A DNA stretch of 11,057 nucleotides, taken from a virus (Duplodnaviria > Heunggongvirae > Uroviricota > Caudoviricetes). The first letter of the stretch is position 1. Every line of letters starts with the position of its first letter. Of this stretch, positions 1,923-4,553 are shown piece by piece. The DNA is taken from IMG/VR virus record IMGVR_UViG_2923360383_000006. One strand, 5' to 3'. The position numbers were made by a program, and so were the translations under genes. The notes under the pieces are model-generated. The model made no database searches, was not told where the DNA came from, and saw nothing but the letters and a program-made list of their open reading frames with translations.

Positions 1923-2002
1923 ATGAAAATGCAAAAACTAGCCTTTTTCCGCGCCGCTCCCGCCCCGTGGCAGACCACTCCACCGGGAGGACCCGTAAAA
2001 AA
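1923..2002 (-). other. Candidate cos site copy 1 (cosQ-like and cosN-like), lambda-type
   Basis: Minus strand reads TTTTTTACGGGTCCTCCCGGTGGAGTGGTCTGCCACG GGGCGGGAGCGG CGCGGAAAAAGG. Lambda right end/left end, from memory: TTTACGGGTCCTTTCCGGTGATCCGACAGGTTACG GGGCGGCGACCT CGCGGG. Shared blocks TTTACGGGTCCT, CCGGTG, ACGGGGCGG, CGCGG at similar spacing (29 vs 30 nt from GGGTCC to the presumed nick). Presumed 12-nt end at plus 1954-1965. Confidence 0.6.
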
Positions 2003-2020
2003 GGCGGCTGTCGCCGCCCT
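1997..2020 (-). terminator. Intrinsic terminator after the protease-capsid gene
   Basis: Minus strand GGCGGC-GACA-GCCGCC followed by UUUUUU, immediately 3' of the capsid stop at 2026-2028. The U-tract overlaps the start of the cos element. Confidence 0.55.
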
Positions 2021-2025
2021 TGTTG

Positions 2026-3939
2026 TCATGCTCCACTCGATTTCAGTAATCCGCGATAATCGAGGGCCGCGACACCTGCATCTATGCGCACCTTCCAGGC
2101 GACGCCATCAACAGTAAATCCCTCCTGCTCCTCAAGATATGGCGTATCAATACCATCAAGATAAGCGACCTCTATCGTGTCCATACCCTTCGCCGCTGCC
2201 ACATACCACTCCTTGTTATTGGCTTTATCAAGACGTGGCTCAACGATTACCTCCGCCATATCTTTCACCACGTTAATGATGCCGGGGTTCTGATTGATAG
2301 TGCCCACGCCATCAACCGGAAAGAGTGATGACGATGACAGAATGGCGCGATGTGCGGCAGACTCCAGCGCGGCGGGGACCAGGACAAATGCGGGGGTAAT
2401 ATTCAGCGAATCGCCGTTAGCGTCTTCCTGGAGGCGCATCAGCTTACGGGCTTCGTTAAGCCCCTCCATGTCCATATCCTTCGCAATAAGATTTTTATGA
2501 TCGGCATGGAATAACGCTTTACCATCCGTAAACTTGCCGTTGCTGGTTAACAGGAGATAAACCAGATTGCCAACTGTTCTGGCAGCTGCGCGTCCCATCG
2601 CCATGGGGATTGTAGTTAACTGGGTCAGATCATCGTTGATAATGGCCTGACGGGTAACGGAAAAAATATTCCCGTACGTGGCCAGCGCAATAGGTACACC
2701 TTTATCGCTGGTGGTGATGTATTTATATTCCGCGCCTTCCGGTACTTTATCCAGCTTTGAAAAACCATTCAGACCAACGCGCTTTGCTTCATGAAAGTTT
2801 GAAAGCGAACCGGTACGCGTCCATTTCTGGAACGTTTCGCCGCTGTCCTGCCAGCCTTTCAGTACTGATTTTTCAGCGCCACCAGCCAGAATATGAGAAA
2901 AATCGCTGCTGCTGTGTGTGAAAGCTGCATTAACGACCTGCGAGCGATTTAAAAAACCGCCAACACTGATACCACGATCAGTTAGTGATGCCTGGGCCAT
3001 TTCAAAAAGGCTCATCATCGCGTAAGGGTTGCCTCGTTCAGGGCGTTCATACCCAAGACGGGAATAAAGCCCCTGACGAATTGCATCACCTGTTATGTTT
3101 CCGTTTCCGGCATAGATATGAGGCGGGGTATTTTTATTGGATGGCGTGGACTCGCGCCCCAGCTCGTTCAACAGCTTTTCACGGGCCATTTCCGGTGTAC
3201 ATGATGCATCTTCCAGACACGCCATTTTGATCCCATCGTAACGACTGCCGAACAGGCTAAACACTTCACTTATTCCATTGATGCGCTTCTGTTCATTACC
3301 AGCAATATTTGCCGCTCCCTGTGGCGGTGTAATCATTCCTTTAATGGTTTCCGGCATATGTAAAAAATCTCCTGTGCGTTTCGATTCAATTCGCGCCATT
3401 GCTCTGACGGATGGCAACAATTCATCAGCAAAACCGTGCTTAAGGCATTCTTTCCCATCCATCCAGGTTTCATCCTCCAGCATGGCGGTAATTTCCTGTG
3501 CTGATTTGCCCGTTTTTCTGGCATAAGCAGGGATTAACACGGTTTCCACCTTATCCAGCAAATCAGCATAATCACGCATATCGCCAGCATTTCCGCCAGA
3601 GATCCCCCACGGTTTATGGATCATCATCATGGCGTTCTCCGGCATCACTACACGATCGCCAGCCATTGCGACCACCGAAGCCATTGAAGCCGCAACACCA
3701 TCGATATAAACCGTAATGTCTGCCGGATGATTCCGTAGCAGGTTATAGATGGCGATGCCTTCAAACACATCACCACCTGGTGAATGGATCCTCAGATTGA
3801 TATGTGAAACATCGCCAAGGGCTTTCAGGTCTTCCGCGAACTGCTTTGCAGTAACACCGAAGCCGCCAATCTCCTCATAGATAGATATATCCGCCGCTCC
3901 ACGAACATCCGCCGCCTTAATGGTGTACCAGCGATTCAT
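2026..3939 (-). CDS. Prohead protease (ClpP/S14-like) fused to HK97-type major capsid protein
   Basis: 637-aa ORF. N-terminal ~200 aa carries ClpP-like motifs (HSPGGDVFEGIAIYNLL, GVAASMASVVAMAG, MMIHKPWG); the C-terminal ~400 aa has the length and character of an HK97-family capsid protein. Start ATG overlaps the orf68 stop (TAATG) with GGTGGGGG upstream. Confidence 0.85.
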   Translation of the reverse strand: MNRWYTIKAADVRGAADISIYEEIGGFGVTAKQFAEDLKALGDVSHINLRIHSPGGDVFEGIAIYNLLRNHPADITVYIDGVAASMASVVAMAGDRVVMPENAMMMIHKPWGISGGNAGDMRDYADLLDKVETVLIPAYARKTGKSAQEITAMLEDETWMDGKECLKHGFADELLPSVRAMARIESKRTGDFLHMPETIKGMITPPQGAANIAGNEQKRINGISEVFSLFGSRYDGIKMACLEDASCTPEMAREKLLNELGRESTPSNKNTPPHIYAGNGNITGDAIRQGLYSRLGYERPERGNPYAMMSLFEMAQASLTDRGISVGGFLNRSQVVNAAFTHSSSDFSHILAGGAEKSVLKGWQDSGETFQKWTRTGSLSNFHEAKRVGLNGFSKLDKVPEGAEYKYITTSDKGVPIALATYGNIFSVTRQAIINDDLTQLTTIPMAMGRAAARTVGNLVYLLLTSNGKFTDGKALFHADHKNLIAKDMDMEGLNEARKLMRLQEDANGDSLNITPAFVLVPAALESAAHRAILSSSSLFPVDGVGTINQNPGIINVVKDMAEVIVEPRLDKANNKEWYVAAAKGMDTIEVAYLDGIDTPYLEEQEGFTVDGVAWKVRIDAGVAALDYRGLLKSSGA

Positions 3940-4145
3940 TATTCCCCCACCGATGCAAAACCATTCTGATTAAGCCAGGTGTTTACGGCATGTCTGACAA
4001 TCTGCGCCACACCTGGTAATGGTTTGTCAGGATGATGATTTATATGGTCGATCCTGTACTGCTTAAGGCGCATAACGGTCTGCGCATCCAGATGAACGGA
4101 ACCACCCCTGATATCGCCCGTGTTCAGGTCATTAATACAACTCAC
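3939..4145 (-). CDS. Hypothetical protein (68 aa), first gene of the capsid operon
   Basis: GTG start at 4145 with AAGAGGAAG 7 nt upstream; stop overlaps the capsid start. No family recognised. Confidence 0.5.
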   Translation of the reverse strand: MSCINDLNTGDIRGGSVHLDAQTVMRLKQYRIDHINHHPDKPLPGVAQIVRHAVNTWLNQNGFASVGE

Positions 4146-4247
4146 AGTAACTTCCTCTTACTGACTAAACTGTGCACATTATTGATCGATAAAAGTGGTA
4201 GATAAACATATTTCTATCACAAAAATAGATTAATGAGATTCAGACAC

Positions 4248-4270
4248 AAAAAAGCCGGAGAAAATCCGGC
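4248..4270 (-). terminator. Intrinsic terminator in the SSB-orf68 intergenic region
   Basis: Minus strand GCCGGA-UUUUC-UCCGGC followed by UUUUUU. Stem is identical to the terminator at 4532-4553. Confidence 0.5.
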
Positions 4271-4457
4271 ATAAATATCCCGCCATCTGAACACGTTTTG
4301 ACACAGGCAACTCCACCTGGCAGGTGAAAAACAGATTTATTTATATATTTCAATTAATTGCAAACTGGTCTAATGACAGGGAGAAAAAAATATTGTACAG
4401 GTGAAAACAGAAATAACTTTTAATTATCAATAAATTATCACACATGCTGCCGCCGCC

Positions 4458-4537
4458 ATGAAAATGCAAAAACCAGCCTTTTTCCGCGCCGCTCCCGCCC
4501 CGTGGCAGGTCACTACACCGGGAGGACCCATAAAAAA
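4458..4537 (-). other. Candidate cos site copy 2 (cosQ-like and cosN-like)
   Basis: 75 of 80 nt identical to copy 1 in direct orientation (offset 2535 bp). Presumed 12-nt end at plus 4489-4500, GGGTCCT at plus 4523-4529 (minus-strand sense). Confidence 0.55.
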
Positions 4538-4553
4538 GCCGGATTGCTCCGGC
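4532..4553 (-). terminator. Intrinsic terminator after SSB
   Basis: Minus strand GCCGGA-GCAA-UCCGGC followed by UUUUUU, ~15 nt 3' of the SSB stop at 4570. A different hairpin sits at the equivalent position of cos copy 1. Confidence 0.55.

Follow-up and report, generated by a model that had tools for sequence, protein, structure and literature searches.

The model for the kind of element examined here is EcCICFT073, which carries two cos sites: cos1, next to the packaging gene, is needed for transfer, and cos2 is dispensable (PMC6092414, PMC6739421). EcCICFT073 also has capsid and decoration genes (Fillol-Salom et al., 2018, PMC6092414; 2019, PMC6739421), and its cos sites, equivalent to those treated below, were shown to be functional (PMC6092414). 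Satellites embedded in their helper are a further configuration that has been described (bioRxiv 10.1101/2022.07.18.500453). Here we analyzed IMG/VR record IMGVR_UViG_2923360383_000006, a stretch of 11,057 nucleotides that we refer to, at its full length, as the window. The window is an Escherichia coli island of about 11 kb that resides in the chromosome between tRNA-Ile/mug and nfeF, and it is an EcCICFT073-like phage-inducible chromosomal island (PICI) of the Gram-negative cos type. E. coli strains with this island include HCM-28C-2 (NZ_AP038246) and APEC 16-1068 (NZ_CP087287). It contains three GC-rich hairpins with a T run, termed A, B and C, of which A and B directly precede the two cos copies. 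Judged from sequence and context, these hairpins are likely intrinsic terminators of a PICI-type satellite that keep cos, and the gene for a small terminase subunit (TerS)-like protein downstream of it, outside upstream transcription.

The window island and EcCICFT073 share an integrase (int), an AlpA-like helix-turn-helix (HTH) protein, a primase, an iteron origin, a capsid gene and packaging genes. Both have two cos sites with phage-like cosQ and cosN, and in both the cosB at the packaging gene is not identical to that of phages. The cos1 of EcCICFT073 even shows the same arrangement of terminator, 2 nt and cosQ. The islands differ in their cosN type, which in the window is GGGCGGGAGCGG (lambda: GGGCGGCGACCT), and in the packaging gene, which encodes a DUF1441 TerS homologue in the window and RppA in EcCICFT073. 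While the window has a protease-capsid fusion, EcCICFT073 has separate capsid and decoration genes. Furthermore, cos2 of the window is in direct orientation, between ssb and the capsid module, and bracketed by terminator-like hairpins, whereas cos2 of EcCICFT073 is inverted, lies at the island end and has no hairpin. Helper-embedded satellites offer a second comparison: near-identical islands with both cos copies and with hairpins A and B sit inside a co-oriented phage terL (large terminase subunit gene), in contrast to the chromosomal position of the window island beside tRNA-Ile and mug. The packaging and capsid genes of such embedded islands (loci L040, L042, L047, L050, L058) are 96-99% identical to those of the window, and the islands are directly followed by large terminase residues 326-700 (e.g., L040:5130-6254).

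Terminator-like hairpins precede cosQ in both cos copies

The two cos copies form a direct repeat (D1, 1923-2016 and 4458-4551) of 94 nt with 89% identity. They have the layout of a lambdoid cos site, that is GGGTCCT, 21 nt and then the cosN-like sequence, in the same register as in phages, and copy 2 additionally has a cosB of phage type. The cos copies and the three hairpins are as follows:

1923..1996, minus strand: cos copy 1 (equivalent of cos1), with cosQ GGGTCCT at 1994-1988 and cosN-like GGGGCGGGAGCGG at 1966-1954
4297..4529, minus strand: cos copy 2 cassette, with cosQ at 4529-4523, cosN-like sequence at 4501-4489, phage-type cosB, and terS ribosome-binding site and start
2021-1997 (core from 2018 to 1997), minus strand: predicted terminator A, GGCGGC-GACA-GCCGCC + T6, with the stem at 2018-2003 (extendable to 2021-2000) and T6 at 2002-1997
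4557-4532 (core from 4553 to 4532), minus strand: predicted terminator B, GCCGGA-GCAA-TCCGGC + T6, with the stem at 4553-4538 (extendable to 4557-4534) and T6 at 4537-4532
4270 to 4248, minus strand: predicted terminator C, GCCGGA-TTTTC-TCCGGC + T6, at the downstream edge of the cos2 cassette

Hairpin A is located 7 nt past the TGA stop codon of the protease/capsid gene and 2 nt ahead of the cosQ of copy 1; hairpin B is located 16 nt past the TAA stop codon of ssb and, again, 2 nt ahead of the cosQ of copy 2. Hairpin C follows a truncated phage terS start and not a full gene, and its start is separated from that of B by 283 nt. We scanned both strands of the window for perfect Watson-Crick stems of 6 bp with at least five G/C, a loop of 3-6 nt and a T6 run 0-1 nt past the stem. 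This strict scan returned three sites, which are exactly A, B and C, and each of them is on the coding (minus) strand. Shuffling the window 1000 times with dinucleotides preserved left 0.002 sites on average, and no shuffle contained three. Thus, the proposal of a sequence-only reading that terminator-like hairpins occupy equivalent positions by each cos copy was borne out by the scan and by the common distance of 2 nt to cosQ, and so was its remark that the copy-2 stem recurs, in C, with a different loop. That A and B form the 3' ends of the capsid fusion and ssb genes, and that B and C are duplicates (see below), had escaped that reading. A lax scan for terminators and promoters was set aside in favor of the strict scan and its shuffles, since its signal was not separable from noise: with 11 terminator sites against 10.8 expected, it listed C, placed A on the wrong strand only and missed B.

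The hairpins have the properties of Rho-independent terminators, namely a stable GC hairpin, a U tract adjacent on the 3' side and, for A and B, an intergenic site on the same strand as the genes. RNAfold returned free energies of -16.2 (A), -15.4 (B) and -10.6 kcal/mol (C). The perfect 6-bp stems contain 5-6 G:C pairs each, and pairing into the U tract lengthens those of A and B to 9-10 pairs. In all three cases a T6 run directly follows the stem, as do T6-T8 runs in homologues, and the run is without exception on the coding-strand side, as it should be for a terminator that acts at the RNA level. Known intrinsic terminators of E. coli have the same GC-rich stem of 6-10 bp, loop of 4-5 nt, 3' U6 and position on the coding strand after stop codons (A, B). 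We see no structural difference to them; the sole oddity is the constant site 2 nt before a packaging signal. A search of Rfam with relaxed thresholds gave no match at the hairpins nor between B and C.

Island and phage cos sites differ in what lies upstream of cosQ

For comparison, 80 loci were fetched via the DUF1441 protein and 120 via the cosQ-cosN pattern. A context was classed as phage if a full-length terL lies downstream, and as island if pri/ssb lie upstream or the gene for a 95-aa protein downstream. A hairpin with a T run just before cosQ was present at 58 of 64 sites in island context (13 of 16 unique upstream sequences), but at none of the 129 sites in phage context (0 of 44 unique upstream sequences). 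A second, independent sample consisted of homologues of EcCICFT073 RppA, and here GGCCGGA-GAAA/GCAA-TCCGGC with T6-8 precedes cosQ in 23 of 25 loci. These 23 take in EcCICFT073 cos1 as well as islands with two further cosN types; of the other two loci, one has none and one has an unrelated terminator that lies about 40 nt upstream. Scanning genome contigs for the cosQ-cosN pattern gave 23 loci and added little. Most of these looked like lambda-type cos sites at contig ends in unrelated taxa, probably carry-over of lambda DNA, or like chance matches.

The lambdoid helper phages (lambda; PhiR47_1, mEp460 and Fels-1-type prophages) have the cosQ GGGTCCT, the cosN spacing and the cosN-proximal sequence in common with the islands, and homology between the island and phages (PhiR47_1, mEp460, Fels-1-type) sets in exactly at cosQ. 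In the phages, however, cos lies inside the late operon, with no terminator upstream.

The arrangement is also found in islands that have undergone rearrangement next to cos. In the L033 group, an inserted gene breaks hairpin A and supplies a terminator of its own, AAAACCGCC-TGCG-GGCGGTTTTG, at a distance of about 46 nt from cosQ; by eye, the insert resembles the gene for lambda tail-assembly protein I. L031 and L045 lack the capsid part of the fusion and retain the protease part, and in both the hairpin is kept.

Several natural variants were observed alongside. Islands L037, L044 and L117 have a single cos and no capsid module, with the order ssb, hairpin B, cos and TerS-like gene. L033, L034, L038 and L053 have, by appearance, a gpI-like tail gene between the capsid gene and cos1, and the single contig L115 seems to hold two different islands, one behind the other. 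Lambda and many lambda-type phages (L004, L112, L127, L157, L164, L172, L207 and others) have an AT-rich, Fur-box-like palindrome, TGATAATCATTATCA, followed by TTTAC/TTTAT directly before cosQ. Hence, an inverted repeat before cosQ is not confined to satellites, although the phage form is not terminator-like.

Stems are kept and loops vary

In related islands the stem of A is invariant and comes with six loops (GACA, GATA, GAAA, TATA, AGCA, ACCA), and the capsid alleles beside these A-type hairpins range from about 60 to 99% identity. The B-type stem occurs before cos with four loops (GCAA, GTAA, ACAA, GAAA), and the C copies have TTTTC, TTCTC, TTTTA or TTTTT. Stem changes are rare: we found one C to T change that gives a G.U pair, one mismatch and one compensatory insertion of a G:C pair (L060). 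Pairing was found in 97.2% of cells in register, compared with 23-65% when the 3' partner was slid by 1-3 columns. A kept stem with a free loop is the signature of a selected RNA helix, although few independent events contribute to it.

Aligned in register, the A and B families differ by two pairs that are changed on both sides. We did not accept shared ancestry of A and B by compensatory change, because hairpins of the B type are also present where there is no cos, and those of the A type are always found behind capsid-type genes. A and B may be independent terminators, and each double change counts as one event at most. The sequence-only reading had argued that a structure which is kept while its sequence differs points to a selected stem-loop, and had proposed to look for structural conservation of the hairpin in related elements. 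The stems kept, loops varied and compensatory G:C insertion agree with this, as does the presence of at least two hairpin families plus unrelated terminators at island cos sites and of none at phage cos sites.

Hairpins B and C flank a phage-derived cos cassette

Five islands that lack cos2 (L038, L049, L053, L055, L208) have one GCCGGA-GAAA-TCCGGC-T6 hairpin between ssb and the 68-aa gene, and both flanks of this single junction terminator match those of the window. B and C are therefore best read as two copies of one junction terminator, and from the sequences we conclude that a duplicated ssb/capsid junction terminator has a captured phage cos cassette between its copies. Recombination between B and C as the source of the cos2-less islands was not accepted, since the loop of the single hairpin is GAAA and neither GCAA nor TTTTC. 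The cassette may have been inserted or deleted; either direction fits.

The bracketing of cos copy 2 by two terminators, which had been noted before, recurs in other islands. In L119, L180 and L115 a cos at the cos2 position likewise has B upstream and, downstream, a terminator unrelated to C, namely GCCCGATAAG...CTTAGCGGGC-T5 in L119 and GCGCC...GGCGC-T4 in L180 and L115. In EcCICFT073 the two terminators adjoin each other with no cos in between.

A group of prophages (L124, L131, L012 and others) matches the 233 nt from the cosQ of copy 2 through 4297 at 91-93.5% identity, and the match extends through the ribosome-binding site and start codon of terS (GGAG...GTG, 4314-4302). The cassette span was matched in several hundred E. 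coli genomes, with the DUF1441 TerS gene adjacent in the matches listed. In the island, terS is deleted past three codons, and what is left is an open reading frame (ORF) of 24 codons (4304-4230, VSKRVQMAGYLCRIFSGFFVSESH) that runs through hairpin C and its T run and is probably a deletion remnant. Its start codon is GTG in the island and ATG in phages. Translation of this ORF could in principle block formation of hairpin C.

The cosB flanks of the two copies differ. Copy 1 is followed by an island-specific, cosB-like AT-rich flank (1770-1922), which is related to PhiR47_1-type phages, and then by the TerS homologue that belongs to the island itself. Copy 2 instead has the entire cosB of one group of prophages, whose TerS begins with MSNVSGIGDAYYW. 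By its sequence, cos2 thus appears to be a complete cos/cosB cassette from a second prophage group. The island may be packageable by two helper terminase specificities, which, if true, could account for the retention of the second, "dispensable" cos in PICIs.

The island and its genes

The island genes are all on the minus strand, in the order integrase, HTH_17 (AlpA-like), Icd-like, DUF4222, D5-type primase, iteron origin and ssb, followed by the 68-aa gene, the ClpP-protease/major-capsid fusion, the DUF1441 protein and the 95-aa gene. The genes next to the hairpins and cos copies are:

1284..1769, minus strand: TerS-like gene (DUF1441, phrog_141 terminase small subunit), 69% identical to phage PhiR47_1 TerS over residues 1-150, downstream of cos1
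2026..3939, minus strand: ClpP-like prohead protease/major capsid fusion (Pfam Phage_capsid_4 and CLP_protease; RefSeq annotation)
3939..4145, minus strand: 68-aa gene, first of the capsid module (phrog_4934 in PHROGs, function unassigned)
4570..4992, minus strand: ssb, last gene of the replication module (Pfam SSB; annotation)

Assignment to the PICIs is based on the Phage_integrase, HTH_17 and D5_N/Pox_D5 primase domains, the iterons, the size of about 11 kb and the specific site, together with two cos sites of helper type and morphogenesis genes that are only partial, comprising the capsid fusion and the TerS-like gene. Among the island genes terL and portal are absent. Nor is there an Rpp protein, the gene behind cos1 encoding instead the DUF1441/phrog_141 TerS homologue, which by analogy may do an Rpp-like job. 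RppA of EcCICFT073 (L227:2660-3094) itself has weak HTH matches and no DUF1441.

Downstream of the primase gene, at 5280-5520, dense direct and inverted GGTGAACAG iterons form the array expected as the PICI replication origin. At 8159-8231 on the plus strand, within the intergenic region from which the Icd-like gene and a YlcI/DUF3950 gene diverge, the sequence weakly matches the SymR antitoxin RNA of Rfam (34.7 bits, with the gathering threshold at 61; E = 0.0015). A strong 11-bp hairpin with a weak T tail, ACCGAGGGCGG-AATA-CCGCCTTCGGT, is found at 490-515 on the minus strand near the island end that faces tRNA-Ile; it may end the last transcription unit of the island or belong to the region of the attachment site.

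Discussion

We infer from sequence and folding that transcription actually terminates at A, B and C. B would then end the transcript of the replication module (primase to ssb), and A that of the capsid module (68-aa gene and protease/capsid fusion). At both hairpins RNA polymerase would be released 2 nt before cosQ, so that the cos site and the TerS-like gene behind cos1 would lie outside the upstream transcription units. C would stop leakage past B, or transcription begun in the cassette, before the promoter region of the capsid module. The helper phages have no terminator before cosQ, and the reason would be that their late transcript has to pass through cos on its way to terS and terL, so that a terminator ahead of a phage cos would be harmful. 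The selected benefit for the satellite would be insulation of cos, which is plausible from the arrangement, and/or independent control of the downstream packaging gene.

Separate units downstream of the hairpins would need promoters of their own. A promoter-like sequence, TTTATC-17-AATAAT, lies at 4206-4178 on the minus strand upstream of the 68-aa gene and is weak. The block (A/G)TTTATCTACCACTTTTATCGATCAATAATG at 4178-4206 looks, by eye, well conserved in L038, L027, L180 and L115, even where the identity of the capsid fusion is down to about 60%, and it may serve the capsid module as promoter or operator. Before their capsid module, EcCICFT073-type islands have TTGCTC-N17-TATAAT and then a perfect palindrome, ATCATAACTGGATGAACATCCAGTTATGAT.

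Several points weigh against the terminator-insulation model. Downstream of C, and likewise in the stretch from cos1 to the TerS-like gene, the promoter search returned only weak sigma-70-like matches (8/12), and we claim no promoters there; the downstream units may hence be transcribed independently or by conditional read-through. There are also exceptions, namely L143 and L251, with no clear terminator, L028, with a mismatch in the stem, and the inverted cos2 of EcCICFT073, which lacks a hairpin. The related islands are mostly close relatives and their counts are not independent events, so that the contrast between islands and phages amounts to about 5-8 independent combinations of hairpin and context. 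Finally, the adjacency to cos could be a by-product of compaction that was not itself selected.

This last thought can be extended to a full alternative, in which A and B are ordinary operon-end terminators unrelated to cos, a minimal phage cos (cosQ onward) was compacted against the upstream gene, and the block of hairpin, T6 and cos spread by recombination within shared cos sequence. A and B do lie at a normal distance past stop codons, and the identical B hairpin (a 22-mer) stands after perC in EcCICFT073 with no cos adjoining. The B-type stem at the ssb/capsid junction of cos2-less islands and the bare inverted cos2 of EcCICFT073 fit as well, and the single-cos islands L037, L044 and L117 resemble cos x cos recombinants. 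We nevertheless regard this account as unlikely, since the pairing of terminator and cos holds for at least two hairpin families, for several unrelated terminators and for several variants of cosQ/cosN. Moreover, a new terminator restores the arrangement after insertion (L033), the arrangement survives deletion of the capsid part (L031), and a second terminator stands behind the cos2-position cassette in three unrelated sequence forms. Quite unlikely, in our view, is that the hairpins are conditional terminators within one long co-directional unit, serving as checkpoints that only a terminator-resistant RNA polymerase would pass, in the order replication, capsid, packaging; the modifier would be the AlpA-like protein of the island or helper Q in a prophage late operon. 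The island genes from HTH_17 (AlpA-like) to the last ORF are indeed on one strand, the promoter candidates downstream of the terminators are all weak, the near-identical islands L040, L042, L047, L050 and L058 lie co-oriented inside phage terL at residue 326, and Pseudomonas AlpA is a processive antiterminator (PMC7969949, PMC9371919). PICI AlpA, however, is described in the literature consulted as an activator/excisionase and is not known to antiterminate, and we identified no loading site for AlpA or Q. The good promoter (TTGCTC...TATAAT) and palindromic operator past the terminators in EcCICFT073-type capsid modules also favor separate units.

Two further explanations were weighed. The hairpins might act as DNA, with GC palindromes serving as recombination junctions for the exchange of modules or cos cassettes, or as aids to terminase at cosQ. 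The same 22-nt element does recur at several module junctions, B and C are direct repeats flanking the cos2 cassette, and many lambda-type phages have the TGATAATCATTATCA palindrome upstream of cosQ. Yet the T run is always on the 3' side of the coding strand, free loops with kept stems are the mark of an RNA hairpin, unrelated terminator sequences replace one another, and no GC hairpin is present in phages with identical cosQ-cosN, the presumed source of terminase for these islands; a role at the DNA level is thus very unlikely. More improbable still is the suggestion of the sequence-only reading that a short minus-strand transcript is bounded by B and C; it would be a dedicated one, for a small RNA or small protein, from 4270-4530. 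Two terminators about 283 nt apart could be read in this way, and so could the 24-codon ORF, which begins at what is retained of phage terS, its ribosome-binding site and start codon, and extends through hairpin C. The interval, however, is the phage cos cassette, which in the prophages is merely the cosB/terS leader; no sigma-70-like promoter candidate was found between B and C, Rfam gave no match, the interval folds no better than shuffled sequence (z = +0.26), and the ORF is probably a deletion remnant. We therefore rejected a short RNA gene at this place and dropped this part of the earlier proposal.

A stronger version of the terminator-insulation model is conceivable but tentative, and we would not yet favor it. 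The cosQ-abutting terminator would be a satellite-specific adaptation by which cos, and with it the TerS-like or Rpp gene downstream, stays free of read-through, whereas helper phages have to transcribe across cos; C, overlapped by the 24-codon ORF, could in addition act as a translation-sensitive, attenuator-like gate into the capsid operon. If this were true, "GC hairpin-U6-NN-GGGTCCT" would be a functional element and a signature that separates satellite from phage cos.

EcCICFT073 was already known to have a pair of cos sites, capsid genes and the same order of genes, and the window does not represent a new kind of element; the result is a useful, modest refinement of known biology. The word "terminator" is absent from both EcCICFT073 papers (PMC6092414, PMC6739421), and three points are thus apparently undescribed there, namely the contrast between satellites and phages in the terminator before cos, the duplication of B and C, and the identity of the cos2 cassette. 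The repeated stem finds its explanation in a duplicated junction terminator around a captured phage cos cassette, and the comparison yields a simple sequence rule for annotating satellite versus phage cos sites. If the terminators work as inferred, the modules of such satellites would be controlled separately and their cos sites would occupy transcription-free gaps between them, in contrast to the cos sites of the exploited phages. This raises the question for PICIs whether transcription across cos, or co-transcription of the TerS-like or Rpp gene, would harm packaging or its timing.

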